The notes under the pieces: model-generated
Told to the model about the DNA's origin: nothing
Databases searched by the model: none
What the model saw: only the letters and a program-made list of their open reading frames with translations
Translations under genes and position numbers: made by a program
Part shown: piece after piece, positions 8,854-51,734 of the stretch
How the letters are laid out: every line of letters begins with the position of its first letter
Position numbering within the stretch: position 1 is the first letter of the stretch
Assembly (NCBI GenBank): GCA_964601175.1
Contig: CAZRMJ010000003.1
Coordinates: forward strand, 27-64,026
From: Candidatus Woesearchaeota archaeon
Lineage (GTDB): Archaea > Nanobdellota > Nanobdellia > Pacearchaeales > GW2011-AR1
Direction of reading: 5' to 3'
Length of the DNA: 64,000 bases

Positions 8854-8937
8854 ATTAAAACAATAAGACAATATTATAAAAAAATATGCTTTATGCAAAA
8901 TAGCATATGTTAAATACACTAAAATAATACTATAAAC

Positions 8938-11805: not shown

Positions 11806-14800
11806 GAAAAACATTTATTTTAATCGGGACTATTCTGTGTTTTATATTTTTAGTTCATTTTGTAAGTGCTGTAGAATGTGGGAGTATTCCTACAAATGGT
11901 TGCACTATAACTCAAAATACTAATTTTACCAACGGAACCTATAATCTTCCCTCGGGAGTACGTATTATTACCAGTGGAATAACTCTTGATTGTCAAAATT
12001 CAACATTAATTGGAGATGGCGGGGTTTTTAGTTATGGAATTTTATTACAAGGAAGTTATAATTCAAACACCATTAAAAATTGCAATTTTGAAGGATATAG
12101 GGCAGGAATTTACTTTAGAAGATTTAACTCTGGTGAAGTACCCAATAATAACCTCATGGTAAATAACTCATTTAAGAATAATACTGATGGAATTCATTTT
12201 ACCACTAGCCCTCAATATAATATAGTAAAAGAAAACTATTTTGAGAATAACGGCCAAGGAGTTTATCTAGATGAAGATTTAAATGAGTATCCAAACAATA
12301 ACAATATTACTGAAAATTATTTTATCAATAGTTCAGGAAGCGATATAAACTTAAGAGATGATTCTAATGCAAATCGCGTATGGACAAATAATATATGGAA
12401 TAATACTATAACTCACAGCATAACTTATACACACACTAGCGAGAATAATTATGTAATAGACGGCGTTGAAAATGTATATCTCAATAATGCAACAGGCCCG
12501 ACATCAGAAGGGATTTATTTATACCAAGGCCTAATAATTAATAGCAATAGAAATTACAGACCTGGAAATTATACATTTACGGGAGTGTTAAATGCTCTAT
12601 CTATACAAGCCGGAGTTACTTTTGACTGCAATAATTCAATTAGTCTAACTGGAGATTTCAATAGTTTTGGAATGGGAATTAGACTTAATTTATATAATAG
12701 TGCTAGCAATGGAGTAGTAAAGAACTGCATTATTAGAAATTTTGGTGATGGAATTCAAATAAGGGAAGATGCTTTCGCTGGAGGCGCAAACAATATAACT
12801 CTAATAAATAATACTTTTGAAAATAATGCTGAGGCAATATATATTGAAGGAGACGGTTCTAGTTTTAATATCCTTAAAAATAAGTTTACTAATGGCACTG
12901 GAGTCAAATTAGACAACAATAGAGGAAATCCCATCCTACACAATATTACTTTAAATTTATTTAATCTAAGCAGTGTTTCGATTGAGTCTGGATCAAATCA
13001 AAATAATGTTTTTAATAATAATTTTATAAACTCTACTGGAAATGATGATGGATCATTAAATAATTGGAATCTAACTAATTACGGAGGAAATTATTGGAGT
13101 TTATATGATTCTATTTCAGAAGGATGTGTTAATTTAAATAATGATTTGTTCTGCGATGATCCGTATAACTTAACTGGTCCAGGCAATAACAAAGATTACA
13201 AACCTTATATTGTTGAAGATGGTTGGCTGGCAGGCCTTCAAGCTAGTGAACCTATACCTGTCCAAGTTGTAGCCGATGTTGATATGGTTAAAGGAAAGAA
13301 TACATTTATCAGAATCCTGATAACTTTCAAAGGAATGCTATCAAACGATACAATTATTCCAAACGTGACTGTTTATTGGAATGGAAACTTTATAGGCCAG
13401 AACATAACATCTAATTTTGAATATAATGAAAGTAAAAACATAGATTTTTGGTACGCCCCTCAGAATTCTGGGGCAAATATGACTATAGTAGTGATGGTTA
13501 ATGGAACTAGCTCTAACGGAATAAATTATTTTGATTCAAATAGTAAAACAGTTAATGTTTTAGATGAGAAAAAATTGGACATTCTTTACGTACCAATAAA
13601 TAGCCCCCTTACTTTCGATGAAGAAGTTAATAAAAATAAAGAAATCATTCAGACATTGTACCCAGTAGCAGATAATATGCTTGGAACTTATTATTCGGAG
13701 AATATTGAGTTAAATGTTAGCTCTAGTTCTGGAATTGCAGGTTTAATCTTAAGATTAGCTGTAATGAAAACCCTTTCTGGTTTAGATAGAAGTGTTGGAG
13801 TTGTTGAAAATGGTTGGTTCGCAACTTTAGGACAAAGTGGAGCTAAAGGCATCTCAATGTTTGTCGGAGGATTTGGAGGACCAGGAGGAGTAATTATAGA
13901 AGAAAGCGAGTATAGTTATATTGCAGCCCATGAAATTGGGCATACTTATGGACTTTGCGATGAATACGATAATGAAACCTGGAATGAACAAAATACGAGA
14001 CTTAGTTCATCAAGTAAATTATGTCCCAATGGGGATGAAGATAACGATGAGCTTTTAGATGAAAGTTGTTTACCTTACGGTTGTCAAGTAACTACTTTTG
14101 GAGAAATTGTCCCATGGAACGAATCAAATGGAGAGATAACTTTAATGAATCTTATGGGTAGCACAGACTCTGGAAGTGTTTGGATATCAAAAGATTCATA
14201 TAATGAGTTATTGAATGATTTTGAGAATATAAACCAATTTTCCAGTTCTGGAATATTGGTAAGTGGTTTCTTCAATAGAACAAGCAATCAGACTGAATTT
14301 GCTAACTTTTATATTATGGATCAGGGGTTATTTATAAAGGATATAAATTCTGGCCAAGGTAATTTCTCTATTGGGCTATCTAATGGATCAGGTTATTTAA
14401 TATCAAACTTCAGTTTTGATATACCCTTTTCAATAAATTATGTTAATGGCAGTTCAGAGGAGACTGATATTGGAGTGTTTTTAGTAGCTCTTAATTATTC
14501 TAATGAGATAAGCAAGGTTTCATTATCTTACTACAACACAACCCAATCAGAAAAAAGCCGTACACTAAATAATCCTGAAATTTTTGGCCTTCCAAACTTA
14601 TCCGGATTTAAAATTTCTAATTCGTTGATAAATCTATCTTGGAATGCTACTGATTCAGATAATGATACTTTAGTATATTCTCTATTGTTCAGTAAAGATA
14701 ATGGGCAAAGCTATACAGTTTTAAGCTTAGATTATCCAGATCAATTTATTTTATTAAATTCATCAAATTTGCCAGATTGCGATTTTTGCAAATTAAAGGT

Positions 14801-15149
14801 ACTAGTTACAGACGGGTTCAATACAAATTATACGGTCTCTGAACCTTTCACAATAGATAATGATTTGTCAATAGATGATTTAAGAGTGATTTATCAAAAT
14901 AATACTCAAAGGATTTTTAGATTTGGTATAAATAACACCTTTGTAAATAAAGTGATAGATACCATTTATTGGAGTTTAGACTTTGGAGAGTTAATAATTA
15001 ACTCTTCGATTAATATCACATTAGAGGGTTCTGAAGAAAGTTTTATATATGTTTATTACAATTATAATGTATCTGGTGGTTATAATATCAAAGCAAATGC
15101 TTATAACGGCATTTATTTAGATACAAGTAACATCACAGTAAACATATGA
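11802..15149 (+). CDS. Secreted right-handed beta-helix (PbH1/NosD-like) protein with an HExxH zincin domain and C-terminal Ig/FN3-like domains
   Basis: Signal peptide, then repeated N-N-x-F-x-N-N-x-x-G-I units (NCNFEGYRAGIYF, NNSFKNNTDGIHF, ENYFENNGQGVYL, NNTFENNAEAIYI). Zincin motif AAHEIGHTYGLCDEYD, with HEIGH at 13929-13943. C-terminal beta-rich domains. Confidence 0.75.
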   Translation: MRKTFILIGTILCFIFLVHFVSAVECGSIPTNGCTITQNTNFTNGTYNLPSGVRIITSGITLDCQNSTLIGDGGVFSYGILLQGSYNSNTIKNCNFEGYRAGIYFRRFNSGEVPNNNLMVNNSFKNNTDGIHFTTSPQYNIVKENYFENNGQGVYLDEDLNEYPNNNNITENYFINSSGSDINLRDDSNANRVWTNNIWNNTITHSITYTHTSENNYVIDGVENVYLNNATGPTSEGIYLYQGLIINSNRNYRPGNYTFTGVLNALSIQAGVTFDCNNSISLTGDFNSFGMGIRLNLYNSASNGVVKNCIIRNFGDGIQIREDAFAGGANNITLINNTFENNAEAIYIEGDGSSFNILKNKFTNGTGVKLDNNRGNPILHNITLNLFNLSSVSIESGSNQNNVFNNNFINSTGNDDGSLNNWNLTNYGGNYWSLYDSISEGCVNLNNDLFCDDPYNLTGPGNNKDYKPYIVEDGWLAGLQASEPIPVQVVADVDMVKGKNTFIRILITFKGMLSNDTIIPNVTVYWNGNFIGQNITSNFEYNESKNIDFWYAPQNSGANMTIVVMVNGTSSNGINYFDSNSKTVNVLDEKKLDILYVPINSPLTFDEEVNKNKEIIQTLYPVADNMLGTYYSENIELNVSSSSGIAGLILRLAVMKTLSGLDRSVGVVENGWFATLGQSGAKGISMFVGGFGGPGGVIIEESEYSYIAAHEIGHTYGLCDEYDNETWNEQNTRLSSSSKLCPNGDEDNDELLDESCLPYGCQVTTFGEIVPWNESNGEITLMNLMGSTDSGSVWISKDSYNELLNDFENINQFSSSGILVSGFFNRTSNQTEFANFYIMDQGLFIKDINSGQGNFSIGLSNGSGYLISNFSFDIPFSINYVNGSSEETDIGVFLVALNYSNEISKVSLSYYNTTQSEKSRTLNNPEIFGLPNLSGFKISNSLINLSWNATDSDNDTLVYSLLFSKDNGQSYTVLSLDYPDQFILLNSSNLPDCDFCKLKVLVTDGFNTNYTVSEPFTIDNDLSIDDLRVIYQNNTQRIFRFGINNTFVNKVIDTIYWSLDFGELIINSSINITLEGSEESFIYVYYNYNVSGGYNIKANAYNGIYLDTSNITVNI

Positions 15150-35773: not shown

Positions 35774-38700
35774 CTATTTAAAATTGGCTCTTTTGAAGTT
35801 CTGAATATTTCTCATATAATATCCAGATCTACTGAAAAAGAAACCATTTCGCTTAAGATACATTACTACGTAAACTATTCCAGCCACTAATATCAAGATT
35901 ATCAAAGCATATACTGCATAGGTTTTGTAGCTAATTATTGAAAACCATGTACTTGCATTTACTATGCTTTCTTCATTATCATTTTCTCTACTTGGATATA
36001 CTGCTTTAACGTTTAGTAAGTAAACTCCACGAGTAAGTTCTTTTGGAACATTAATTGTTTTAAGTAAACTTGTTTGTGTGCTTACCGCTACTGTTTCATG
36101 TTCAATATCATATATCTGTCCAGTACTTGTATCTTCTATTGAATAATAGACCACTACATCAACTTCGCCTATGTCTCCTAAGTTTAATATTTGTACGCTT
36201 GCAAGTATTTTCCCGCCAGGACTTATTATTCTTCCATCTAATATTTCTGTGTTTATATCGAACAATGCGCCTTTAGAAGATGCGTCTATTGCAACTAACA
36301 CTTCATCTTCAAATCCGGGTGCCTTTGCAACTATCTTTCCAATATAAAGCTCAGGAGCAGCATCTTCTCTTACAATGAAATCTACTTTAACTGTTTTTGA
36401 CATTCCTGGTTCAAGAGTTATTTCAGTTTCAGATAACTTCAATTGATCCTTAAGTCCAGATACTTCAAGATTCAAAGCAATATTTCTATTACCCGTATTT
36501 TCAATTACTAAGTCCCTTGTTGAAGTTTGTCCTTGTTTAAGAGAAACTTTCATATTTTGAGGGCTAAACAACACTTCTTTCAGCCTTTCTGCTCCTAAAA
36601 GCGGAGTTAGTTCTATGGTTGCAGAATTCCTTAAACTATTTATTGAATTTAGTTTAACTGAAAGGTCGTCTAAGCCATCTTTATTGAAATCAAAGTTCTT
36701 AGAGTCTACAATATCAAGAGTAAAGACTTCAGGAGTACTTTCCATTGTGAATATTGCTTTTGAACCATCATATCCGTTAAATGTTATATGGTGTATCTGA
36801 CCATTTCCTATGGAAAAGCTCTTCCTATTAGAAGAGAATATTTCCCTATTTGTTCCTCTAATTATTCTACCAAATGAATTATCGCTTCCGAAAGAAGATC
36901 CGCCGCTTCCTCCGCCGGATCCGCCATTTCCATTAGAACCTCCGTTTCCGCCATTTCCAGATCCTGTAGGAAGATTCTTATCAGAGAATAAACCAAAGAA
37001 TAATCTCATTAAGTCAGAGAATCCTTTAAGTATATGACTATTTCTTTGAGTAGAATTTGTCAAACTTAATCTCTGCACCAATTCTACTAAATATTGTGTA
37101 AGTCCTCCAACTCTTGAAGCTATAGATTGAAGAACTATCTGCTGAGTTTGTAGCCTAAATATTCTTCCAAATCTTGTCACAGAATTAGTAATGGAAATAT
37201 CTTGTATGGCAACTCTTACTCTACTTGCTTGTTTATACAGCGAATCTGACAAACCGATATTTGTTGAACTAATTCTAAAGATTCCCGAGAATCTTGAAGC
37301 ATAATCTTCTAGACTTATTTCATTAGATATCTCTCTGTTTGCTCCAAAGAATCTTTCTAAATTAAAGTTGAAGCTTATCAAATTAGTTGGTAATCTGAAT
37401 ATATTTCCAATTCTTTCAGAAGCTAAATTTAATCCAACTATTTGCGAATTAATTCTATTTGCTCCAAGATTACCTCTAAATCCTAAGTCAAGAGTAAATG
37501 AATCATCCGTAGATCTAAACATATAAGCTAATCTATTGACGGCGTTATCTATTGTTAATCTTTGAGTATTGATTCTAAACAATCCACTAAATCTAGTGTT
37601 GCTTTCTGCAACATTCACATTTATGGAACTTGTTCTAATTAGATTTGCCAATCTGTTGATTGTTTCATTAAGATTGATTCTTTCTATAAGTTGAATTACA
37701 TACTTTAATATTTCAGCACCTAAATTGGTTCCGGCTCTAACATTAACAACTTGTGTAGGGGTCCTAAACATTCCCAAGAATCTGTTTACAGAATCACTCA
37801 AACCTATAGAATTAGAAGCAATTCTGTTAGCTCCATAAGTTCTTGAAATTCCTAAGCTAAATCCTAAAGAATCTTGGTTTACTCTAAATATTCCAGAATA
37901 TTTGCTATTACTATTATCAACCGCTATAGTTTGAGAGTTTATTCTGAATAGTCCAAGTAATCTTGTTACAGCGTTATCTAGTGTAAGAGTTTGGGCATTT
38001 ACTTTAAACAATCCACTAAATCTAGTATTTTTCTCATTTACATTTATACCTTGTTGATTAATTCTAAACAAACTAGCAAGTCTGGTTAGACTATTATCTA
38101 TTGTAAGTCTCTGAGTGTTCAATCTAAACAATCCAGAGAATCTTGTATTGGTATCGTCAATAGTCAAAGTTTGAGAGTTTATTCTGAATAATCCTGAGAA
38201 TCTTGAGTTACTATTTACCAAGTTTAATTGTTGACCCATTATTCTAAATAATCCTCCAAATCTAGTATTGCTTTCTGTAATTCCGATATTATTGTTATTG
38301 ATTCTGAATATTCCTGCAATTCTATTTGCTATACTATTCAGACTCATGTCCTGTATGTTTGCCCTAAGCCCAATATAGTTTCTATTTGATACTGCGTCAA
38401 TTGAAAGCAAGTTAGTTGGTATTTTGAAAATGCCTGCTAATCTTTCAACGGAATTATTTAAGTTAAGCTGTTGAACTAATTCTACAAGGTACTTTAGAAT
38501 ATTCTGAACATTAATAAGAACTTCATTTACATTTATGACTTGTAATTGTATCCTGAATAATCCTAATAACCTGTAACTATTTTCATCTAGACTTATAGTT
38601 TGTTGATTTATTCTAAATAATCCTGAGAACTTATTAGCATTTTCACCGAAAACAAATTCTTGATTGTTAATTCTAAATAATCCTCCGAATCTAGTATTGC

Positions 38701-41700
38701 TTTCTGTAATTCCAATATTATTGTTATTAATTCTGAATATTCCCAAGAATCTATTTACAGAATCACTCAAACCTATAGAATTAGAAGCAATTCTGTTTGC
38801 TCCATAAGTTCTTGAAATTCCTAAGCTAAATCCTAAAGAATCTTGGTTTACTCTAAATATTCCGCTATATCTTGTATTAGCATTATCAACAGCTATAGTT
38901 TGTGAGTTTATTCTGAATAGTCCAAGTAATCTTGTTACAGCGTTATCTATAGTCAATCTTTGAGTGTTGATTCTGAATAACCCACCAAATCGAGTATTAC
39001 TTTCTCCCAGGGTTAAACTATCAGAATTAGTCTTGAATAATCCCCTAAATTTACCAAATTGACTATTAAGGAGAATCTCTAAGTTGCTATTCTTAAATAA
39101 ATCCCCAATTCTATAATTTGAACCATTTATTCTTAAAATACCGGTCAAATTTATAGAATAAGTATTGACTAAATTAAGTGCGCTAAATGTAATATTTGTA
39201 GTAGAGTTTAAGTTATTGCTTGAATCCCAACAAAAGTATTTTGCAACGTAACTTCCATCAGAAATTGTAGAATTTGTAGCATTAAAGTCCCTATTGCCAT
39301 TATTTTGCATGGTATAATTTAATTTACCATTAGTTAATGTAAAGTTACATGCGCTTCCATCTTTGTTCAAGGTTACATTAAATAAGATCGGAGGATTCAA
39401 GGTATCGTTAGCAGGGTTATTTATTGTAACTTGAGGAGGAGTTATATCATTATAAATGACTGTAAAGTTAGTTGAATTCATAGCGCGATTACTTGCATTA
39501 TCAAAAGTAAGATAATTCCAAACATATGTCCCGGAATAAGGCAAGGTCACTGTAATATTGGTACTATCTGCCAATCCAACTATTGTAGCATCAGTAGTGT
39601 TAATAATATCTCCAGTAGAATTCCAAACATATAAAGTAGTATTATGAAGTGCGAAATTATCGCTAAAGGTGGCATTAAAACTAACCACAGGATCTGTTAC
39701 AGTGGTGCCATTAGAAGGTGCATTCAAATTCGTAACTGGAGGAATATTCTGTTCATAAACTACATCTGCGGACATGAAGTCAACACCAAATCCACCAGTA
39801 GCTGTGCTATTCTGATATGCCATCAATCTAAATTTACTATTAGACACAAAATGATCCATTTCGGAGACAGATAAATTATAGGTAGTAGTGTTCAATACTC
39901 CTATTGCTCCAGCACTAAAGTTTACTCTTCTCCAACCTCCAGAAGTAAAGTTCCATAAAGCCATACCCTTCATATGATTAGCTACTGTTGTATTTGATCT
40001 AACTGTAAGAAATATTCTTGTTATTGCTTCATTAGAAGGTACTGTGAAGTTAACAAATACAAAAGTATCTAAAGATGCACTTTCCCCTCTTGGCCTAAAT
40101 GCAATATTATTTGAAGTATTAAGGCCATTTATGCCACTTGAAGTAAGAAGAGACGTTCTTTGTATTGCAAATCCTCCAGTATCTGTATGAGTTCCGTTTG
40201 AAGCTCGTTGAGAAACTGCATTAGGAACCAATGTTTCAGAGACTAATGGATCTACAATATTATCGAATTGCAAATCTCCTCCTGAAATAAGCAAATCAAA
40301 AACACTTTGAGATCTACTACCTAAATTAGTCAAGAAAACAGTATTGTACTGATTATCAGTTATTGAAGTAAAGTTGACTATCTGATTCGTTCCATCTTCT
40401 TCATATACTGTAATCATTGGAGTTCCAGAAATAGTTCTTGGGTATATAGTAATATCATTAGAAGAAGTAAGATTCTTGTTAAAAGCAATTCTAACATAAT
40501 GCGTATCTGAAATAGTTTCGCTCCATATACCATCTATTTGTCTAACTGAATCAAAAATATTAGAAATAATAGTTCTATTTTCATCTAAGTGTAAAGCCTT
40601 TGTCAATTCTACAAATCCAAATGCAGAATTTCCAGAAGGCAAGGTAATATTATATTCTTGTCCAGGAGTTAGATCATGAAGAAATGGTTCCCATCCACTA
40701 GAACAACTTTGATCTGTAAAGTTCCATGAAGGACAATTCTTCAGCTCAGAACTTTGAGCTGTAAAGAAAACAGTATAATTAGTGAAATTATCCAATAAAG
40801 GATCAACGCTAAATACACTAAATAGGTTGTCTAAACTCGAAACACTATCCAATCTTGCAACTTCTAAAGATGTATCTGTAATATTTTGTTCTGTCAAATT
40901 TATATTGTCAAATCTTATTCTATCAACATAATCTATATCTAAAGGAAATACCCTTATTGTATAAGTAGAGTTTATCGGAATTATTGCAGTTAAGTTATCT
41001 CCAGTTTCATTATATACAAAAGAATTAGCAACTTCATCATATATTGTAACTTTAGCATTAATAGGATTCCCATTAGAATCTAAAACAGTCCCATTTACTA
41101 AAGCATATTGTTGAACAACTGAAAAGCTAACATTAGAAGTATAATTAGCATTACCATTAACGTCTTGTGCGTAGACTTGGAAAGTATAATCTCCAAAATC
41201 AAGATCTCCGCTACTAGCATTAAAGTTAAGCCCATCTTCAGAGCTCATTGAAATATTAGTTAAACCATTATCTAATGTATAATTTGCTACTCCATTTTCA
41301 TTTAATGAAATATTAAATGAAAGAGGCAGATCTAAAAGCCTAGAATATTCAGCATTATTTTCAGGAGAGTTAATGGTTACTAATGGAGCATTAGCATCTG
41401 AAGTCATACAAGTAACATTAACAAAATCAAAACCTGCTTCTTCATTTAAATCATTTTTACTTGCAGTTACTCTTATTTTGAAGTTGTTATTTAATCCAAC
41501 TCCAGAAGTAATATTATATGTCTCTGTATCCCAGGTGTTATCTTCACAAGCCTGACCATTAGTACATGAAAAGATGTTTACAAAATTCCCGCCTGAATTT
41601 GTAACATTTACATAATAAAATTCACCATTATCAAAAGAACTATCAACATATCTAGAATAAGTAAGAATGCATTCGCTATAAGGTGTTAAATCAAGAGAAT

Positions 41701-42355
41701 TTGTTAATTGTAACGCATTAATCGCTCCATTTTCAGCACAAGCACATTGAGCCCCATCAGCACAATTGGTAGGACATAAATTAACGTTAGACCATCCAGT
41801 CCCAGAAACTTCTGTCCAATGAGTCCAAGAAATTCCATCCTCAAAACTGTCGGAAAATACTTCTGTAACTGTTGGATCTATTATATGATCAAATTTAATT
41901 GATCCATTAATAACTCTTAAATCAAATTGATCTTGAGATTTTATTAAATCCCTTAGAAAGATCTTATTATATGAATCACTTGTTATGTCCCTAAAAGAGG
42001 CAATAACTTTATCCTTATCTTTTTCATAAACCTCTATTATTGGATTTCCATTAGTTACTATTGGATATATAGTAATATCATCAACAGAAGTAAGATTCTT
42101 CTCAAATGTAACTCTTACATATTCTCCATCATTTATTTCATTACTCCAAATATTATCTTTTGATTTAATAGAATCATAGATCTTTTCAACAAAGTTCCTA
42201 TTAACATCAAGATGTTCAGCGTTTACTATTTGTATCGAATTAAATCTATTTTGTTCATTATTTAAAAAGAGAATTAATTTATGAAGATTAATTAAAATTA
42301 ATATTCCCAGAGTTAAAACTAAAACGCCTATCAAGATAACCTTTTTATTATTCAT
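35774..42355 (-). CDS. Giant (~2193 aa) N-X-S/T-rich surface protein: N-terminal anchor, two HLD..FDHIIDP modules, Ig-like domains, 20-residue repeat array, Gly/Asn/Ser linker, two Ig-like domains, C-terminal TM
   Basis: Uninterrupted 6.6-kb ORF. The ATG at 42355 follows GGAGGG and overlaps the upstream wHTH stop as ATGA, whereas the track start at 42373 is TTG. The C-terminal TM is YAVYALIILILVAGIVYVVMY. Confidence 0.85.
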   Translation of the reverse strand: MNNKKVILIGVLVLTLGILILINLHKLILFLNNEQNRFNSIQIVNAEHLDVNRNFVEKIYDSIKSKDNIWSNEINDGEYVRVTFEKNLTSVDDITIYPIVTNGNPIIEVYEKDKDKVIASFRDITSDSYNKIFLRDLIKSQDQFDLRVINGSIKFDHIIDPTVTEVFSDSFEDGISWTHWTEVSGTGWSNVNLCPTNCADGAQCACAENGAINALQLTNSLDLTPYSECILTYSRYVDSSFDNGEFYYVNVTNSGGNFVNIFSCTNGQACEDNTWDTETYNITSGVGLNNNFKIRVTASKNDLNEEAGFDFVNVTCMTSDANAPLVTINSPENNAEYSRLLDLPLSFNISLNENGVANYTLDNGLTNISMSSEDGLNFNASSGDLDFGDYTFQVYAQDVNGNANYTSNVSFSVVQQYALVNGTVLDSNGNPINAKVTIYDEVANSFVYNETGDNLTAIIPINSTYTIRVFPLDIDYVDRIRFDNINLTEQNITDTSLEVARLDSVSSLDNLFSVFSVDPLLDNFTNYTVFFTAQSSELKNCPSWNFTDQSCSSGWEPFLHDLTPGQEYNITLPSGNSAFGFVELTKALHLDENRTIISNIFDSVRQIDGIWSETISDTHYVRIAFNKNLTSSNDITIYPRTISGTPMITVYEEDGTNQIVNFTSITDNQYNTVFLTNLGSRSQSVFDLLISGGDLQFDNIVDPLVSETLVPNAVSQRASNGTHTDTGGFAIQRTSLLTSSGINGLNTSNNIAFRPRGESASLDTFVFVNFTVPSNEAITRIFLTVRSNTTVANHMKGMALWNFTSGGWRRVNFSAGAIGVLNTTTYNLSVSEMDHFVSNSKFRLMAYQNSTATGGFGVDFMSADVVYEQNIPPVTNLNAPSNGTTVTDPVVSFNATFSDNFALHNTTLYVWNSTGDIINTTDATIVGLADSTNITVTLPYSGTYVWNYLTFDNASNRAMNSTNFTVIYNDITPPQVTINNPANDTLNPPILFNVTLNKDGSACNFTLTNGKLNYTMQNNGNRDFNATNSTISDGSYVAKYFCWDSSNNLNSTTNITFSALNLVNTYSINLTGILRINGSNYRIGDLFKNSNLEILLNSQFGKFRGLFKTNSDSLTLGESNTRFGGLFRINTQRLTIDNAVTRLLGLFRINSQTIAVDNANTRYSGIFRVNQDSLGFSLGISRTYGANRIASNSIGLSDSVNRFLGIFRINNNNIGITESNTRFGGLFRINNQEFVFGENANKFSGLFRINQQTISLDENSYRLLGLFRIQLQVINVNEVLINVQNILKYLVELVQQLNLNNSVERLAGIFKIPTNLLSIDAVSNRNYIGLRANIQDMSLNSIANRIAGIFRINNNNIGITESNTRFGGLFRIMGQQLNLVNSNSRFSGLFRINSQTLTIDDTNTRFSGLFRLNTQRLTIDNSLTRLASLFRINQQGINVNEKNTRFSGLFKVNAQTLTLDNAVTRLLGLFRINSQTIAVDNSNSKYSGIFRVNQDSLGFSLGISRTYGANRIASNSIGLSDSVNRFLGMFRTPTQVVNVRAGTNLGAEILKYVIQLIERINLNETINRLANLIRTSSINVNVAESNTRFSGLFRINTQRLTIDNAVNRLAYMFRSTDDSFTLDLGFRGNLGANRINSQIVGLNLASERIGNIFRLPTNLISFNFNLERFFGANREISNEISLEDYASRFSGIFRISSTNIGLSDSLYKQASRVRVAIQDISITNSVTRFGRIFRLQTQQIVLQSIASRVGGLTQYLVELVQRLSLTNSTQRNSHILKGFSDLMRLFFGLFSDKNLPTGSGNGGNGGSNGNGGSGGGSGGSSFGSDNSFGRIIRGTNREIFSSNRKSFSIGNGQIHHITFNGYDGSKAIFTMESTPEVFTLDIVDSKNFDFNKDGLDDLSVKLNSINSLRNSATIELTPLLGAERLKEVLFSPQNMKVSLKQGQTSTRDLVIENTGNRNIALNLEVSGLKDQLKLSETEITLEPGMSKTVKVDFIVREDAAPELYIGKIVAKAPGFEDEVLVAIDASSKGALFDINTEILDGRIISPGGKILASVQILNLGDIGEVDVVVYYSIEDTSTGQIYDIEHETVAVSTQTSLLKTINVPKELTRGVYLLNVKAVYPSRENDNEESIVNASTWFSIISYKTYAVYALIILILVAGIVYVVMYLKRNGFFFSRSGYYMRNIQNFKRANFK
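37771..37980 (-). repeat. Near-identical 210-nt intragenic duplicate, copy A
   Basis: Matches 38740-38949 almost base for base, apart from a ~25-nt divergent patch. The offset is 969 nt. Confidence 0.85.
38740..38949 (-). repeat. Near-identical 210-nt intragenic duplicate, copy B
   Basis: See 37771-37980. A shorter duplicate also occurs (about 38250-38320 vs 38680-38745). Confidence 0.85.
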
Positions 42356-42564
42356 GCCTTCCCTCCTTTCCAATAATGCAATTTAGCAATACCTACAGGC
42401 CTTATTCTAATAAGATCAGCACCTTTTAATTCAGCTAAAGCAACAGATACGGTATTTCGAGAGATACTTAATTTTTGTGCTATTTCTACTACTGTAAGAC
42501 CTTCGGTGTCCTTTCTAAGTAGATTCGCCACTAAATCTTTTTTTGTTTTTACTATTTCTTTCAT
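42352..42564 (-). CDS. 70-aa winged-helix DNA-binding protein (MarR/ArsR-like fold)
   Basis: LTVVEIAQKLSISRNTVSVALAELKGADLIRIRPVG is an HTH plus wing. Its TGA overlaps the giant gene's ATG. Confidence 0.7.
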   Translation of the reverse strand: MKEIVKTKKDLVANLLRKDTEGLTVVEIAQKLSISRNTVSVALAELKGADLIRIRPVGIAKLHYWKGGKA

Positions 42565-42605: not shown

Positions 42606-42751
42606 AATAAAATAAATCAGGGTTTATATATCTTTGTTAAAAATCGTAAAAAACTAAAATTTACAATCAAAGTTAATAATAAATAACAAATCAAATTCAA
42701 TAATAGGCATAAAAAACCAAGAAATTACAATAATAAAAAAATCAAAATAAA

Positions 42752-45119: not shown

Positions 45120-48100
45120 CTAACCTCCAACTCCTGCAGCATAAGTATCTCCCGTACCTAAAACTATAGTGAATGTAATAGTAGAAGATCTAGATCCTGG
45201 ATTTTCCGAAGAAGGAACTGTAACGTTGATATCTATCTCTGCACTATCTGAAGAGTACGTATAATTAAGATCTGTAATTATCTTAGTATTATTTGAAGTT
45301 TGAGGGACAGGGAAATAAGTAGTTTTAGAAGTTGGCCATTTAAATGAACCATTTTCAGAAATTCCATTTGTAGTAACATTATCTGCTTTAGCTAAATAAT
45401 AAGATGAAGGATTTGTTAAACTCTGCCAAAGATCAGTAGCTTGAATAGAAATATCGACGAGAGAGTTACCTTGATTAACCAATATAATCGGATTAGGAGA
45501 ATTATCTACAGTATCATTGGATGCAAGATAATTCAAATTACCGAAGTCTATCGAACTTATGTTCATTATAGTATCTAAATAAGCCTGGACGCTAAGCCTA
45601 TATTTAGGAGAATAAGAACCATAATTAACCCCATCATCAGAAGCAGAAGCACTCCAAATATAACGATCATTATTATCAATCAAACAATTGAATCCCAAGA
45701 ATAGCGTAGAAATATCAAATGTATTAATAAATTCAGGCTCATAAATATTTGCTCCATTGAAACTAGAATCTGTGCATACTGAAGAACCAGAAAGACTAAT
45801 ATTGAATCTGGAAGAGACTATCGAATCACCATCATCATCACTAATTGCAATAGAAAATATTTGAGAAGTCCTATTAAAAGTAACAGAGCTATTTATTGGA
45901 GATATCAAACTTACATTTGGAAGACTATTAAGAATAGTTAAATTACTTGAATTAACTGAAAAAGAAGAAAATCCATCATTTAATATCAATTGGGCAGACC
46001 AGTTCTGACCTTTAGTTGTGTTTCCATAACCCAAAGAAGCAATAAATGTAGTGCCATTAGCATAACTAGAATTATAAGGTATAGATAGATGTCTAACACT
46101 ATTATTATACCAAACTACTGTAACATTTATAGTATTATTGTTCTGATCCAACAGCGTTGTCCTTATATTCAAATTATCAAGAGTTTTATTTGTTCCTAAA
46201 GTAGAATTAATTACTAATGAAGTTCCATTATAAGGAGCAACATTTGTAGATACAGTTATAGTTCTAGTTTCAGTGGAATTAATATTTCCATAGATATCTT
46301 GAGCATAAGCTTTGAAATTGTGAGTTCCAGAAGAAACGCTAGAATAATCTATTAAGCTATATCTATCTGATTGGTTTTCATAAAGCTGTGCTATTTCAGT
46401 CTGAGACAAAGATCTATTGAAAAACATAACATTATCGATACTCCCATTGAAGTAATTTAGGGTCTGTGATCCTCCTTGACCTATAGTTACACTTCCAGAT
46501 ATAACATTACCAGGTGAAAAAGTAAATGGAGTACCATTAACTCCATTTTTGTATAATTTGGAATTAGAACCATTAGCAACTAAAGCAATTTGACTCCAAG
46601 AGTTTGCTGAAACTTGTAATTGAGTATCGGCAGCAGGAGGAGAAACAACAAAAACATTTCCAGTTGAATTTATTCCCAATCTATACTGGAAGTCTCCAAA
46701 AGCATCAGAATCTTCCCTAGAAAGAACATCTCCCCCAAGAGTAAAAGGCTTTATCCATGCGACAATAGTAAAACGATCTAAAACATCTAATGGAGCAGCT
46801 GGACTATTAGCAAGATCTGGATCTCCAAGATCCAAGTAATCTCCATTTCCATCAAAAGAAAATGAACCTCTAAACCTACCGCTTGAGTTAGGTGCAGCAT
46901 TTCCGTTAATTGTACCATTTATAACGCCAAGATAATCATAAACGATAGTAGGACTATAATCATCCATTCTCCACCATCCAACTAAAGATTTATCAAAATC
47001 AACGAAAACGCTAGTATTACTCAAATCAGAAACACTAACGTTTATTGAAAAACTACTAGATTGAGTACTAGCATTAACCGGAGTAGGTCCAGTAAAATTA
47101 ATAGTTGGAGGAATACCATCTGAAACCGTAAATGTTCTAGTCTCGCTAATTTTTTGATTTCCAGCATCATCTAAACAAGTAACATTCCAATAATGGTCGC
47201 TAATAGAAAATCCGCTAACACTTACATTAACAAGAGTATTGTTTGAAGAACCAATATTAGATTTGTTAACTGAATTATCTATAGTCAAATTACAGTTAAG
47301 GGAAGTATCTATAGCATCTGTAGCAGTCCAATTAAATGATATTGGAATTCCAGATGAACTAGTACTTGCATTAGAAGGAGCATTCAAAGTGATATTTGGA
47401 GCAGTAGAATCAATATAGAAAGTATATATTGGAGTTGCATTAAGAGCCCCAGTATCTCCGCTAACATTAGCCCTTAAGAAATATACTCCTTCATTTAGCC
47501 TGTATGCATTTAATATTTCTGAAGCAGTTAAAGTTCTATTATAAATAACAAGATCGTCAATTAATCCGGGAAAATAACCAGTAGCAATAGGGGCAGAGCC
47601 AACTCTTAAAGTCCCACTTATATTTGGAAGATAAGCCGAGTTTGTATTTAAAGTACTAGAAGAGTTAAGATAACCATTAACATAAGTAGCAGCATCTCCT
47701 GTAGCTCTATCAAAAGTAACTGCATAATGATACCAAGTAATATTTGGCATAAATATTGCACTAGTGCCAATTGCTACATTAGATGTGCCATTACCTGTAT
47801 CGAAAGAAATAGTTTTAGTCGAGTTTAAAAACTCGACATTATAACTTCTATTGACAAATGTACCGACTCCAGATCTAGAAACTGGAGATGGCCAACTATA
47901 AATAGTATCATTAAGGGATAAATTAAACCAAAACATAATAGTTATCTGCCCAGTAAAGTATGGAGACGCAAGCAAAGTATTTTCTGAAAATGATATCACT
48001 TGGCTTCGATTGCCTCTAAAAGCATTTCCTAAACCAGTTATACTTTTTTGTCTACCTCCTTCAGCATTAGTCACGGTACCATTAAATTGACCGGTCGCGA

Positions 48101-51100
48101 AATCCGTTACAGTAGTTCTATTTTCTCCATAATAAGAATTATTATCAAAATGATACAATAAGATCATTCCATTAGGATCATAATCTAAAGGAGGGATACT
48201 ATAATTGAAAGATATATTTCCGGCAACAACAGGAAAACTATCGGTAGAATAAACAAGATGATCATTTTTGAAAGGAGAACTTTTACTTATGTAAAAATAA
48301 GAATAATTATAATCGCCCCCTAGATAATAACTATCATTTACATATAAGGTAATATTAACTGCTCTAACTGAAGTAGAAGAACCATTAATTGGAGAAGTTA
48401 AATTAAATGTGCCTATAGGCAAATCATCAACTCCTGAAATAGTAGGAAGTTCTATTACTTGCCAAGTTCCAGTTTGAACGTTAGAAGTAGTAGCCCTGGT
48501 TAGATTTATAGTATTTGTACTAGAAATATTAATAGTCCCCATAGAATTTTGCCAACTAGTACCAGTTCCAGTATTGTTGAACCAAAGAGTAGCAAATGAC
48601 CTATTCAACTCAACAGCATTTATAGAAATAGAGTTACTAGTAAATACTTGTTGACCTGTTTGAACTTTAGCCCCTGGAGTAGAAATTACATACCATTTAG
48701 CCATAACATTACCATTACCCGAAGCAGCAAGCCTAGAAAACCTAAAAGTGGTCTGATTAAGAGGTTCTACAGTTACACCTACATATCCTAAACCTATAGC
48801 CGTATCATTAGTAGTTTCTGAAAAATAATACCAAGTACTTCCTAAATCAACAGGATTAACATTTGCATAAGATGGAGAGGCAGTAGTTCCTACATTAGAA
48901 ATTTCTCCTTGCTGAATAGTAGACCCATCATTAAATTCTGTAACAAAATAAGAAACATTACCTGCACATGCTCCAGAAGAATCTCTTCTCAATTCAAGAT
49001 TTGTAGAGCTAGTTATATTTGCAATCCAGAATATTTCATGACCATCTGCATTAGAAGCTGAAGCACAACTAGCAAAATTAATAAAAGCAACGGATCTAGA
49101 AACATTAACTGAATTAATAGTTACGTTAAAAGATTTATCGGTAAGACTATAATTCTTACTACCATTCTGAACATTAATATAATTTCCTTCTATGACATAC
49201 CAATCAAATATAGCTCCAGCTTCTGTACTTACCTTTACAATATTAAACCTAGTCCCATTTACCCATTCTGCATAAGCCCCAGAATCCGCAGGAACTTCTT
49301 CAGCTACAGGAGCTCTCCTAGTAAGTAAAATAAATGCCCTAGAGTTATTAACTGATCTTGACAAATTAATCGGAGTTATTTGACTAGCACCGAGCACATT
49401 TTCACCATGCTCTGTCCACCAAGAAGGATTAGGAGACAAAGGATCAATTATATGATCGAATTGAATATCTCCTCCAGTAACATAAAGATCAAAAGTATCT
49501 TGAGATCCTTGAAGGCCAGATAAAATTACTCTGTTATAGCTTTCATTTTCAATAGATGAAAACTGAGCAATTTGAACAGTTTGATTATATTCATAGACAA
49601 TTATTGATGGACTTCCAGAAATAATTCTAGGATACAAGGTGATATCATTTTTAGAAGTAAGATTATGTTCAAAAGTAACTCTCACATAATGTCCCCCTGG
49701 AATAGTTTCGCTCCAAACACCATCAAGAGCTTTAGTTTCATTATAGATATTGGAAACAAAAATCCTACTCTGATCTAAATGTTGAGCATTAGTTATAACA
49801 ATTATATTGAAAGTCTGATTACTAAGGTGTGGAGCGATCCACTCAACATAGTCATAATAACCGTCGCCATCAGTATCATTAGCATAATAAATATCAAGCA
49901 ACGAGTTATTCTCGACCCATTCTATTTTTATATCTGCAAGATTATTTATCCTAAGCCCATTAGATAAATTAGTAAATATCAAAACATTTTCATAGTGAAC
50001 ATCATTAGGGCTTGAAACGTGAACTATTTTTTTATTACCTTCATCTTCTTCAGTAGAAGTAGGTGCATCAGTATAATATTCAATTTCGACAAGATCATCA
50101 GTTTGATCAATTTCAAGAGATATTTCCGAAGTAGCACTTGCGGATTGATCTTCAACAACTCTTCCAGTTAAAGCAAAAAACTCAAGTATCTTTGAAATAA
50201 AAGATTTTTTAGAAACGCCTATATTAGCAACAACTCCTCCAGTTATTGGAGAAAGAGAATTATCAGAAACACTTTCACCATTCAATTTTATTTTATTAAC
50301 TGTAATATTATCTGCACTTGAAGGAACTTCGATAATTAAACTAGAAGTATCATTTGCATCAACTTCTATAGTCTTTTTCCATTTAACTGGCTTGCCAATA
50401 ACTGCAGAAAATTGTTCAACAGTAACATTAGTTGATGATTCTACTATTAATGGCAACGTATCATTAATCAAACTAGTTTGATTAGTAACCGTAAAATTAG
50501 AAACAATAGTGGAATTGCTTAAAGTATTATTAGAAGGAATAGTCTGATTTGAAGTTGATCCGTTTAAATCTGGTGAAACATTAGAATCTTCTACTACTCC
50601 TGAGGATCCAGAATCAGAAGAAGAATCAATTTCAGAATTATCTGATATGATAACTATGTTTTTAGAATCTTGAGAGATTACATCATTTCCATAACTTAAA
50701 ACTATAGATATCTCAGAATTTTCTGTAGCAATTAAACCAAAGCTTTCAAGATTAAGAGATATTGTTTCCTTTTTATTTCCAGCAAAATCTTCCCCATAAC
50801 CTTCCTGATCAATTGAATAGCTAGTTGAAACAGTTACCTCTCCATTTTTAATTTTAATTTTTACAGAATTATCATCTAGCATTTCCCCATTATAATAAAC
50901 ACTTCCAGAAACTAATTCAACAGTTTCACCATCATTTAATGAATATGTAAATTCTTTATCCTTAGAAACTCTTCCAGAAATAGTATCTTCAGAGATAACT
51001 GATCCTGTGATAGCTGACTGATCTGAATTTTCTGAAGAACTAGTGGAATCAGATGGAGTCTCCGAAGAAGAGGTTTCCAAATCTGAAGATTGTGAAGATC

Positions 51101-51734
51101 CCGTGTCAGCAGAAACTCCTTCAACATTCTGAGTATTTTCAGAAGTTTCAGACGAAACACTATTTTCAGAATTAGAATTACCAGAAGATTTAGAATCCTT
51201 AACTATGCGAAGATCAAAATCGACAAAAGGATATTCTTTATTTGTTCCAATCAAACCATAACCATTACCGTAACCTTCAATAGAAACACTTTTAGAATAA
51301 AAATTACCTTGTACAGCAGGTTCATTTACTAAAGAAGAAAGAACAAAATCCTTAGTAATATTTCCATATTTAACAGTCACAATAGAATCGGAAGGTATTA
51401 GTTCTCCCTGAGCTAAATTTAAATTAAACTTGCCATTTATAATATCTCCAACATTATAAGTATCATGAACTTCCAAAGAAACATTTCCAGTAATATTCAA
51501 AGGAATTAAAAACAAAGCAAGAGAAAAAAACGCTACATAAAAAACAAAAAGCAATTTATGTTTTGAAAAAAAGTTATTTTCAATATCTGAACCAAGATAT
51601 TTTGTTACAATTTTTCCATTAATTCTTTTAGTCTCATAATAATATGGACCAAAACGTTTGCCATCTTTATACGTATATTTTTTATGCACCACTTTCAGTT
51701 CTCTTACACTCTTTTTTAGATAAAAGAAAAGCAA
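45120..51734 (-). CDS. Giant (~2190-2204 aa) surface protein: basic cytoplasmic N-terminus, TM anchor, Ser-rich region, one HLD..FDHIIDP module, two LamG/ConA-like domains, Ig-like domains, C-terminal TasA-like domain
   Basis: Uninterrupted 6.6-kb ORF with no in-frame ATG near the 5' end. The track start is TTG at 51734. GTG at 51692 or 51689 fits better with the TATA-like TTATAAATA at about 51739-51747. LamG-like signatures LLYHFDNN...ITIMFWFNL...LVIYNRTLTASEI and LVGWWRMDD...FTIVAWIKP...VMFFNRSLSQTEI. Confidence 0.85.
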   Translation of the reverse strand: MLFFYLKKSVRELKVVHKKYTYKDGKRFGPYYYETKRINGKIVTKYLGSDIENNFFSKHKLLFVFYVAFFSLALFLIPLNITGNVSLEVHDTYNVGDIINGKFNLNLAQGELIPSDSIVTVKYGNITKDFVLSSLVNEPAVQGNFYSKSVSIEGYGNGYGLIGTNKEYPFVDFDLRIVKDSKSSGNSNSENSVSSETSENTQNVEGVSADTGSSQSSDLETSSSETPSDSTSSSENSDQSAITGSVISEDTISGRVSKDKEFTYSLNDGETVELVSGSVYYNGEMLDDNSVKIKIKNGEVTVSTSYSIDQEGYGEDFAGNKKETISLNLESFGLIATENSEISIVLSYGNDVISQDSKNIVIISDNSEIDSSSDSGSSGVVEDSNVSPDLNGSTSNQTIPSNNTLSNSTIVSNFTVTNQTSLINDTLPLIVESSTNVTVEQFSAVIGKPVKWKKTIEVDANDTSSLIIEVPSSADNITVNKIKLNGESVSDNSLSPITGGVVANIGVSKKSFISKILEFFALTGRVVEDQSASATSEISLEIDQTDDLVEIEYYTDAPTSTEEDEGNKKIVHVSSPNDVHYENVLIFTNLSNGLRINNLADIKIEWVENNSLLDIYYANDTDGDGYYDYVEWIAPHLSNQTFNIIVITNAQHLDQSRIFVSNIYNETKALDGVWSETIPGGHYVRVTFEHNLTSKNDITLYPRIISGSPSIIVYEYNQTVQIAQFSSIENESYNRVILSGLQGSQDTFDLYVTGGDIQFDHIIDPLSPNPSWWTEHGENVLGASQITPINLSRSVNNSRAFILLTRRAPVAEEVPADSGAYAEWVNGTRFNIVKVSTEAGAIFDWYVIEGNYINVQNGSKNYSLTDKSFNVTINSVNVSRSVAFINFASCASASNADGHEIFWIANITSSTNLELRRDSSGACAGNVSYFVTEFNDGSTIQQGEISNVGTTASPSYANVNPVDLGSTWYYFSETTNDTAIGLGYVGVTVEPLNQTTFRFSRLAASGNGNVMAKWYVISTPGAKVQTGQQVFTSNSISINAVELNRSFATLWFNNTGTGTSWQNSMGTINISSTNTINLTRATTSNVQTGTWQVIELPTISGVDDLPIGTFNLTSPINGSSTSVRAVNITLYVNDSYYLGGDYNYSYFYISKSSPFKNDHLVYSTDSFPVVAGNISFNYSIPPLDYDPNGMILLYHFDNNSYYGENRTTVTDFATGQFNGTVTNAEGGRQKSITGLGNAFRGNRSQVISFSENTLLASPYFTGQITIMFWFNLSLNDTIYSWPSPVSRSGVGTFVNRSYNVEFLNSTKTISFDTGNGTSNVAIGTSAIFMPNITWYHYAVTFDRATGDAATYVNGYLNSSSTLNTNSAYLPNISGTLRVGSAPIATGYFPGLIDDLVIYNRTLTASEILNAYRLNEGVYFLRANVSGDTGALNATPIYTFYIDSTAPNITLNAPSNASTSSSGIPISFNWTATDAIDTSLNCNLTIDNSVNKSNIGSSNNTLVNVSVSGFSISDHYWNVTCLDDAGNQKISETRTFTVSDGIPPTINFTGPTPVNASTQSSSFSINVSVSDLSNTSVFVDFDKSLVGWWRMDDYSPTIVYDYLGVINGTINGNAAPNSSGRFRGSFSFDGNGDYLDLGDPDLANSPAAPLDVLDRFTIVAWIKPFTLGGDVLSREDSDAFGDFQYRLGINSTGNVFVVSPPAADTQLQVSANSWSQIALVANGSNSKLYKNGVNGTPFTFSPGNVISGSVTIGQGGSQTLNYFNGSIDNVMFFNRSLSQTEIAQLYENQSDRYSLIDYSSVSSGTHNFKAYAQDIYGNINSTETRTITVSTNVAPYNGTSLVINSTLGTNKTLDNLNIRTTLLDQNNNTINVTVVWYNNSVRHLSIPYNSSYANGTTFIASLGYGNTTKGQNWSAQLILNDGFSSFSVNSSNLTILNSLPNVSLISPINSSVTFNRTSQIFSIAISDDDGDSIVSSRFNISLSGSSVCTDSSFNGANIYEPEFINTFDISTLFLGFNCLIDNNDRYIWSASASDDGVNYGSYSPKYRLSVQAYLDTIMNISSIDFGNLNYLASNDTVDNSPNPIILVNQGNSLVDISIQATDLWQSLTNPSSYYLAKADNVTTNGISENGSFKWPTSKTTYFPVPQTSNNTKIITDLNYTYSSDSAEIDINVTVPSSENPGSRSSTITFTIVLGTGDTYAAGVGG

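Follow-up and report, generated by a model that had tools for sequence, protein, structure and literature searches.

The giant surface-protein gene and its repeat array

The stretch of DNA analysed here, 64,000 nucleotides of contig CAZRMJ010000003.1 from a Candidatus Woesearchaeota archaeon (hereafter the window), carries on its minus strand a giant surface-protein gene at positions 35774-42355, and within this gene an array of 20-residue repeats covering residues 1058-1786 (positions 36998-39184, minus strand). The mechanically called open reading frame (ORF) extends over 35774-42373 on the minus strand, comprising 2199 codons in a window of ~31% GC, and begins at an in-frame TTG at 42373. 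Directly upstream lies a 70-residue ORF resembling a helix-turn-helix (HTH) protein (MKEIVKTKKDLVANLLRKDTEGLTVVEIAQKLSISRNTVSVALAELKGADLIRIRPVGIAKLHYWKGGKA, positions 42352-42564, minus strand), whose stop codon overlaps the ATG at 42355 of the giant gene (ATGA); because of this overlap, the ATG at 42355 and not the TTG at 42373 is the likely start, giving a protein of 2193 residues.

From the N- to the C-terminus, the protein is composed of a hydrophobic segment identified by a hydropathy scan, which may be a signal peptide or a transmembrane helix (residues 1-25, positions 42281-42355, minus strand), globular domains rich in N-x-S/T sequons, the repeat array, a Gly/Asn/Ser-rich, flexible linker after the array (residues ~1797-1830, positions 36866-36967, minus strand), an immunoglobulin (Ig)-like beta-sandwich domain predicted from a borderline Pfam match to Cep192_D3 with an E-value of 3.6e-6 (residues 1932-1997, positions 36365-36562, minus strand), a predicted transmembrane anchor (residues 2138-2162, positions 35870-35944, minus strand) and a short basic tail. 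Outside residues 1058-1786 there are 51 N-x-S/T sequons, compared with 29.5 expected from shuffles. Together with the two hydrophobic segments, these sequons agree with the preliminary description of the locus, made from the sequence alone, which placed the repeats inside a giant surface protein.

Cutting the array in register yields 32 canonical units, 3 variant units and 1 degenerate unit, with the canonical units remaining in phase inside three blocks. All parts are encoded on the minus strand. Block 1 contains 11 units of 20 residues, the first two of them degenerate (residues 1058-1277, positions 38525-39184), and is followed by a 23-residue variant unit, EVLINVQNILKYLVELVQQLNLN (residues 1278-1300, positions 38456-38524). 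Block 2, which served as the target for structure prediction, has 12 units (residues 1301-1540, positions 37736-38455) and is followed by the 23-residue variant unit AGTNLGAEILKYVIQLIERINLN (residues 1541-1563, positions 37667-37735), for which a helix was predicted with low confidence. Block 3 has 9 units (residues 1564-1743, positions 37127-37666) and is followed by the third 23-residue variant unit, SIASRVGGLTQYLVELVQRLSLT (residues 1744-1766, positions 37058-37126), and by a degenerate terminal unit, NSTQRNSHILKGFSDLMRLF (residues 1767-1786, positions 36998-37057). The preliminary description had reported blocks of about 8, 12 and 9 units within 37030-39145, interrupted by 23-residue elements; the three interrupting elements and the sizes of the second and third blocks stand, the first block has 11 units and not 8, and the array extends slightly beyond that interval on both sides.

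Autocorrelation of residues ~1030-1800, using either BLOSUM scores or identities, was positive solely at lags of 20, 40 and 60 residues. At lag 20 the identity was 0.265, compared with 0.082 ± 0.010 in 2000 shuffles (z = 17.7), and it did not exceed 0.111 at any other lag, bearing out the strict 20-residue (60-nt) period proposed earlier; every peptide string quoted in that proposal is present. At the DNA level the array appears as a 60-nt repeat family with 15 copies. The unit consensus is [NE]-S-N-T-R-F-S-G-L-F-R-I-N-S-Q-x-[IL]-x-[LI]-D, in which a basic residue (Arg or Lys) occupies position 5 in 30 and position 11 in 31 of the 32 canonical units, flanking a glycine at position 8 (23/32) that forms the centre of a palindromic R-F-x-G-x-F-R motif. 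Position 10 is Phe in 24 units, position 15 is Gln, Asn or Asp in 28, and positions 17 and 19 are hydrophobic throughout (32/32). Asn, Ser, Thr and Gly together make up 37% of the array; Ala, Glu and Lys are few, Tyr is rare, and neither Cys nor Trp occurs.

Most units have diverged from each other, with a median DNA identity of 47% and values above 85% in only 3 of 496 pairs. One near-identical stretch is found on the minus strand, where the units at residues 1138-1217 (positions 38733-38998) pair with those at residues 1461-1540 (positions 37764-38029) at 88% identity over 266 nt and 94% over the central 210 nt. Because the remaining pairs are diverged, the array is judged to be old, with one recent four-unit duplication. 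This duplication had already been recognized from its 210-nt core and now extends to 266 nt.

Relatives show how the arrangement varies. The metagenomic protein P0047 shares 80% identity with the final 533 residues, a stretch that takes in the third variant unit, for which its equivalent is DMVSRVGGVAEYLIELVQRLSLT; another metagenomic protein, P0037, covers residues 1397-1454 at 90% identity. P0009, at 36-43% identity, is laid out in the same way but has only two blocks, both of six units and both closed by a 23-residue variant unit, so that its copy number is about 14 units, compared with about 36 here in blocks of 11, 12 and 9. The variant units share the motif GG[IL]xxY[LFV][IV]E, which is kept in P0009 and P0047, as is the degenerate terminal unit; because both relatives keep the variant unit at block ends, it is a conserved block terminator. 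Close orthologues of the array were sought in metagenomes, and none was confirmed. Short reads can mis-assemble repeats, and one 210-nt pair is 94% identical, so that one may ask whether the array arose during assembly or goes untranslated. At a median unit identity of 47%, however, reads would be placed uniquely, a 2199-codon open frame in DNA of 31% GC would be very unlikely by chance, conservation is higher at the protein than at the DNA level, and independent metagenomes yielded both P0047 and P0037. The probability of an artefact is therefore vanishingly small.

A family of 20-residue repeats with two arginines

The repeat does not correspond to a described family. The array gave no match in Pfam-A, NCBIfam or PHROGs, and sequence and profile searches of PDB sequences with the array and the unit profile returned no genuine match, in line with the earlier statement that the unit was not recognized as any named repeat. 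Ten homologues scanned singly and 55 full-length homologues (Pfam E <= 1e-4) likewise lacked any Pfam or NCBIfam model over the repeat, and literature searches turned up no description of it. As a positive control, Beta_helix and NosD models were detected in the ORF at 11802-15149 of the same window, implying that classical beta-helix repeats would be detected if present.

Individual repeat classes were considered and rejected. For leucine-rich repeats (LRR), the Pfam scan of the protein and of the array found none at E <= 1, and the hydrophobic positions 13-17-19-3 of the family are spaced 4-2-4 as opposed to 3-2-5 in LRR, whose core is LxxLxLxxNxL. Pentapeptide repeats, with four A(D/N)LXX units to a 20-residue coil, are contradicted by the lack of a signal at lags 5 and 10 and of a Pfam Pentapeptide match, and hexapeptide or left-handed beta-helix (LbH) repeats, built of [LIV]-G-x4 units with coils of 18 residues, by the lack of a signal at lags 6 and 18 and of a Pfam Hexapep match, LbH enzymes appearing only as non-significant Foldseek neighbours. 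The right-handed parallel beta-helix models (PbH1, Beta_helix PF13229 and NosD PF05048), whose coils of ~22-25 residues vary in length, did not match this ORF. The cell-wall-binding and toxin repeats CW_binding_1/CROP (PF01473/PF19127), which bear an aromatic signature (GW, YYF), had no Pfam match, in an array that has no Trp and rarely Tyr. Curlin repeats of CsgA/CsgB (S-x5-Q-x-G-x-G-N-x-A-x3-Q) were rejected because Pfam Curlin_rpt was not found and the Foldseek comparison with 8c50 gave E = 1.3 and a template-modelling (TM) score of 0.17. RHS/YD repeats, which have a YD-x-x-GR motif and beta-hairpin units varying around 20-22 residues, were rejected on the lack of a Pfam RHS_repeat match and of a YD motif and on the invariant unit length.

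To characterize the family, we constructed a profile, A2, from a clean ungapped alignment of 60 columns comprising ten non-overlapping three-unit windows of the array. Searched exhaustively against 1.84 billion proteins, A2 retrieved 516 cluster representatives at E <= 1e-3, 179 at <= 1e-10 and 9 at <= 1e-30, showing that the repeat is a member of a previously unannotated, strict 20-residue family with at least 516 cluster representatives. Judged by these sequences, it is peculiar neither to the target protein nor to DPANN archaea. A word-indexed homologue search, run with the 705-residue array or with a profile of 90 family sequences, gave no match, the index being blind to the family. In all 12 of the family matches inspected, the autocorrelation maximum fell at lag 20 or 40, and family arrays hold phase without insertion or deletion for up to 765 residues, as expected if every unit must have the same length.

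Across 90 family sequences the only residues conserved in the majority are the two arginines. From the 80 non-self sequences the unit can be written as D/E1 s2 h3 t4 R5 h6 x7 g8 h9 h10 R11 t12 h13 s14 [DQE]15 s16 h17 t18 h19 s20, or in short form as [DE]xhxRhxxhhRxhx[DQE]xhxhx. In these sequences Arg or Lys is found at position 11 in 99% and at position 5 in 88%, Asp, Glu, Gln or Asn at position 15 in 96%, and a hydrophobic residue at positions 17 and 19 in 95% and 86%, respectively. Position 1 is acidic in 71% and position 15 in 63%, and the family occurs in AT-rich and GC-rich compositional dialects. The target array conforms to the family definition, with the deviations that the acidic residue stands at position 20 and not 1 and that position 3 is often Asn. 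A family hidden Markov model (HMM), A4, which includes ten 60-residue segments of the target array, gives the target ORF an E-value of 2.5e-170 and reaches E <= 1e-3 with none of the other ORFs in the window.

Two architectures can be distinguished among the 150 best members. A C-terminal transmembrane segment is present in 38, of which 25 also have an N-terminal hydrophobic segment; these anchored members are often giant, such as P0001, a hypothetical protein of 3254 residues from a Candidatus Bathyarchaeia metagenome-assembled genome (MAG), and in many the array ends only ~60 residues from the C-terminus. The remaining ~110 members, without such hydrophobic segments, have a soluble architecture. 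Over all 150, the medians are 321 residues for the N-terminal flank, 424 for the array and 65 for the tail. Among 55 shorter members scanned, 13 contain Laminin_G_3 and thus combine this domain with the array. Twenty members examined by cluster look-up and a set of 10 matches were all unnamed or 'hypothetical', with Candidatus Bathyarchaeia as the one taxon name.

The family also extends into phage virion gene clusters. Single members among the 55 scanned carry Gp77 fiber-tail adaptor, tail completion gp17 or tail terminator domains; in PHROGs, three were assigned as 'virion structural protein' and some as of unknown function, including phrog_12240 in 9 of the 55. Two soluble members, P0152 (locus L012, 10001-11422) and P0112 (locus L013, 8359-9582), lie in phage-like structural gene clusters directly after the major capsid gene, in L012 also after a cement gene, and in L012 the genes annotated after P0152 are those for head-tail connector, tail tube and tape measure. 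From where they are encoded, they may be fibre or decoration proteins attached to the head. In a tblastn search of 50,697 GenBank phage genomes, neither P0017 nor the target array had a match, and at the viral-contig loci L005-L011 the array matches were only weak (E 1e-4 to 2e-7).

Few genes of DPANN and other uncultured archaea are as poorly annotated as those for giant surface proteins, which are obvious candidates for the cell-to-cell contact that these archaea are thought to need. The analysis converts ~730 unexplained residues into a defined module, for which there are now profiles (A2, A4, A5), a structural model, a proposed role and a family of no fewer than 516 clusters, and connects it to phage virion gene clusters, where the same module is found; a Pfam or NCBIfam model built from A2, A4 or A5 would annotate hundreds of 'hypothetical' proteins.

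Predicted fold and proposed role of the array

Given an alignment of only three window-derived rows, AlphaFold2 produced a weak all-beta model with a predicted local distance difference test score (pLDDT) of 52, in which one variant unit was predicted to be helical. With A5, an ungapped alignment of 39 in-phase family arrays, the prediction for block 2 (residues 1301-1540) reached a pLDDT of 76.9 and a predicted TM score (pTM) of 0.70, with nearly every residue engaged in a beta bridge. We read this model as a parallel in-register beta-solenoid with one unit per coil. Direct-coupling analysis of 1435 adjacent-unit windows (effective number, Meff, about 1300) yielded local couplings at separation 2 (mean after average product correction (APC) 0.62) and none at separations 3 and 4 (-0.05 and -0.04), as well as ladders centred on positions 8 and 18 (7-9, 3-13, 5-11, 4-12, 1-15 and 13-23). 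Beta geometry is the better fit to this pattern, in which each unit would have two strands and turn at Gly8 and Thr/Gly18. Ser and Thr occupy the even positions 12-20, 2 and 4, alternating with hydrophobic or charged positions; unit length is invariant over long stretches, as in beta-solenoids, and the local geometry is best read as that of beta-strands. Many of the top Foldseek neighbours in the PDB are beta-helices (two-partner secretion (TPS) domains, tapirin, LbH enzymes and CsgA), none of them significant. A beta-rich fold is thus likely, with the parallel solenoid as the leading model over an antiparallel meander, a trimeric fibre and a helical solenoid. The earlier remark that the period is compatible with a beta-solenoid gains from the model and the couplings as far as beta structure is concerned; the topology is not proven.

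On balance, we lean slightly towards the interpretation that the array is the rigid, segmented stalk of a membrane-anchored surface protein, a long beta-rich rod whose length is altered by intragenic duplication. Each unit would most likely form two short beta-strands with tight turns at Gly8 and Thr/Gly18, and stacking of the units would generate a long, non-globular, beta-rich rod. Beta stacking typically gives a rise of ~0.48 nm per unit, so that 36 coils would measure roughly 17 nm if the array is a solenoid. The rod would be placed between the distal glycosylated globular domains on one side and the Gly-rich linker, Ig-like domains and membrane anchor on the other, most likely holding the distal binding domains clear of the cell in this DPANN (Pacearchaeota/Woesearchaeota-like) archaeon. 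The three 23-residue variant units, which close the blocks, would probably divide the rod into three segments, serving as caps or kinks, and duplication of several units at once would alter its length. This interpretation draws on position and comparison: the anchor adjoins the array in many members, unit length is invariant, copy number varies, and the family occurs in phage virion modules. The distribution of sequons can be added to this. Within the array there are 5, compared with 15.4 expected from shuffles (P = 0.0016), a ~3-fold depletion, and this bias, with the excess outside, fits heavily N-glycosylated globular domains and a bare repeat rod.

A number of observations weigh against the solenoid and the stalk. 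AlphaFold2 is known to return confident but unrealistic beta-solenoids for repeats, including those with 20-residue units (PMC11795689), and Foldseek searches of the model against PDB and BFVD gave no match at E <= 0.001. The coupling ladders at positions 8 and 18 could come from an antiparallel meander just as well as from the arches of a solenoid, and the couplings from i to i+20 had to be discarded as evidence of in-register stacking, as those from i to i+40 are equally strong and can be attributed to each protein's own dialect. Relatives of the non-repeat domains occur in Candidatus Pacearchaeota and Woesearchaeota MAGs (loci L001-L004), where a search with A4 found the array to be missing; the array is therefore a module in only some proteins of this type and, judged from these loci, is dispensable for it. 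Finally, the large positive charge of the array suggests that the rod may do more than spacing. Two further objections concern the secondary structure: the hydrophobicity spectrum of the family peaks at 108 degrees and not at 160-180 degrees, and the A5 profile matches the designed helical repeat DHR14 (5h7c_A, 5cwh_A and 5h78_A) with E-values of 3e-14 to 1e-5, ungapped over ~140 residues.

These two results also support an alpha-helical hairpin solenoid resembling designed helical repeats or HEAT repeats, in which each unit would form a helix of ~16 residues and a loop of 4, with two units per hairpin. The 108-degree harmonic accounts for 37% of the family hydrophobicity power, and the alpha-band exceeds the beta-band in 34 of 39 arrays; the spectrum is, however, distorted by the two Arg spikes, which are 6 residues apart and force zero power at 90 degrees. 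The hydrophobic positions 3, 6, 9/10, 13 and 17 have an a/d-like spacing of 3-4, and the top autocorrelation of P0001 and P0003 is at lag 40, whereas the direct couplings occur at i+2 and are lacking at i+3 and i+4, and positions 17 and 19 are both more than 85% hydrophobic. Chou-Fasman means are ambiguous between alpha and beta; a glycine would stand in the middle of the putative helix in 23 of 32 units, in a sequence rich in Asn, Ser, Thr and Gly and poor in Ala, Glu and Lys. With respect to DHR14, a single unit scores 2.7 bits and four copies 25.5 bits, indicating that the score arises from multiplying near-identical copies, and 3 of 400 perfect repeats of shuffled units reach the same value (empirical P ~0.008); the match was consequently rejected as evidence of homology or of a helical fold, having been amplified by the matching 20-residue period. 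HMMER E-values are unreliable when a repeat profile meets a repeat target in this way, and a repetitive query calls for explicit controls on its AlphaFold2 model as well as on HMM E-values obtained with idealised designed repeats. In both runs AlphaFold2 modelled the units as beta, even where a variant unit of the chain came out helical, and no helical-repeat family of Pfam matches. Taken together, a helical solenoid seems improbable.

An intertwined trimeric beta-fibre, such as the triple beta-helix or beta-spiral of phage or adenovirus fibres, is an alternative to a monomeric solenoid. The soluble members of L012 and L013 lie in virion modules right after the capsid gene, and the few members with tail-related domains or virion-structural PHROGs point in the same direction; salt bridges between chains would go well with the strict period and the conserved charged residues, and one strand face alternates between hydrophobic and charged rows, an arrangement awkward in a monomer. 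Against this, Foldseek against viral models gave no fibre match, the 50,697 GenBank phage genomes were without a tblastn match, and the monomer was modelled with a pLDDT of 77, leaving little probability for a trimer. A broader proposal, which we regard as quite unlikely, is that the repeat adopts a fibrous fold not seen before, as a two-stranded solenoid bearing Arg and Asp/Gln ladders on its outside or as an intertwined trimer, that this fold is shared between head-proximal virion proteins of phages and the giant surface proteins of DPANN archaea and Bathyarchaeia through exchange of modules between viruses and hosts, and that the archaeal form, devoid of acidic counter-charges, would be a bare polycationic rod gripping the acidic envelope of a host. 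A related possibility, compatible with the stalk and rather unlikely, is that the array is itself a binding surface, its two Arg ladders binding acidic polymers of the host's or its own envelope (S-layer glycans, acidic lipids or nucleic acid), by analogy with 20-residue repeats that bind choline or carbohydrate. The array has a net charge of +34 over 729 residues (67 Arg, 12 Lys, 24 Asp and 21 Glu), as opposed to -67 in the rest of the protein, and Arg is strongly preferred over Lys only inside the array (67:12, compared with 45:48 outside); the depletion of sequons would keep its surface bare, and DPANN archaea are described in one account as mostly ectosymbiotic (PMC8407392). In most family members, however, the arginines are balanced by Asp or Glu at positions 1 and 15, suggesting that they are structural, and no ligand-binding family of Pfam matches the array.

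Viewed as a stalk, the array can be compared with several known systems and is, by its sequence, a new family within a known kind of structural element. The CW_binding_1 repeats and the CROP region of Clostridioides difficile toxins are built from ~20-residue units of paired short beta-strands forming a long solenoid-like rod, into which longer variant repeats, placed at intervals among the short ones, introduce kinks, and their units are defined by aromatic residues. The array resembles them in its ~20-residue period, in the longer variant units between runs and in its occurrence in surface or secreted proteins; it has no sequence relation to them, contains no Trp and is defined by two Arg and Asp/Gln, its variant units are longer by 3 residues only, and no ligand is known. 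Curli CsgA likewise has strand-turn-strand units of 19-23 residues with a conserved Gln, Asn or Asp within the strand (position 15 here), and the in-register parallel stack predicted for the array would be a further likeness; the CsgA motif, however, is S-x5-Q-x-G-x-G-N compared with R..G..R here, and CsgA is a secreted amyloid subunit whereas the array is part of a membrane-anchored multidomain protein. The right-handed beta-helices of TPS adhesins (FHA, HMW1, HxuA and EtpA) and of PbH1/NosD proteins resemble the proposed rod in being elongated and presenting adhesive functions at the surface, and they are the best structural neighbours (TM score up to 0.52, non-significant); they differ in having three-sided coils of irregular length as opposed to the invariant 20-residue unit, and neither Fil_haemagg nor Beta_helix of Pfam matches the array.

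With regard to varying length, one report describes periscope proteins, bacterial surface proteins in which stalk length varies with the number of repeats (PMC9704523). The target protein is similarly predicted to be surface-anchored, with the array at residues 1058-1786 lying between the anchor (residues 2138-2162) and the distal domains and with a copy number that differs between relatives. Periscope repeats are whole folded domains with near-identical DNA repeats, whereas the units here have 20 residues and are mostly diverged (median 47% DNA identity) apart from one four-unit duplicate at 88-94%; because of this divergence, rapid switching of length is not expected. The likeness to DHR14 is limited to a half-period of 20 residues, a partly matching hydrophobic pattern and an [ST]-D motif at the same phase; DHR14 is an artificial, idealised alpha-helical protein, and its composition and coupling pattern differ.

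Gene neighbourhood

The ATGA overlap between the 70-residue HTH-like ORF and the giant gene suggests that the two are translationally coupled, and the HTH-like protein is possibly a co-transcribed, dedicated regulator of the giant gene. Upstream of this ORF, in the AT-rich intergenic region, there is a 30-nt tandem repeat at 42679-42735 (1.9 copies, 82% match).

The target protein contains two copies of an unannotated domain of ~130 residues (residues 38-182 and 576-704). Residue 38, within this domain, is also where every match to the loci L001-L004 from Pacearchaeota and Woesearchaeota starts. A second giant ORF at 45120-51734 on the minus strand, encoding 2204 residues with two Laminin_G_3 domains, carries the same domain at residues 639-775, with 50-53% identity to the copies in the target protein. 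Between 34579 and 45018 the giant gene is flanked by five minus-strand ORFs (155, 199, 196, 393 and 150 residues), each with an N-terminal hydrophobic segment and none with a Pfam match; with the two giant genes they look like a gene cluster for surface or membrane proteins.

Directly upstream of the second giant gene, a small minus-strand ORF at 51777-52160 matches the Pfam family PhageMetallopep, a putative phage metallopeptidase (E = 8e-17). Elsewhere in the window, the plus-strand ORF at 11802-15149 encodes 1115 residues with NosD and right-handed Beta_helix repeats and is another probable surface protein. The minus-strand ORF at 7720-8919, unrelated to the repeat array, encodes 399 residues with a C-terminal Schlafen/AlbA_2 domain (E = 8e-22).

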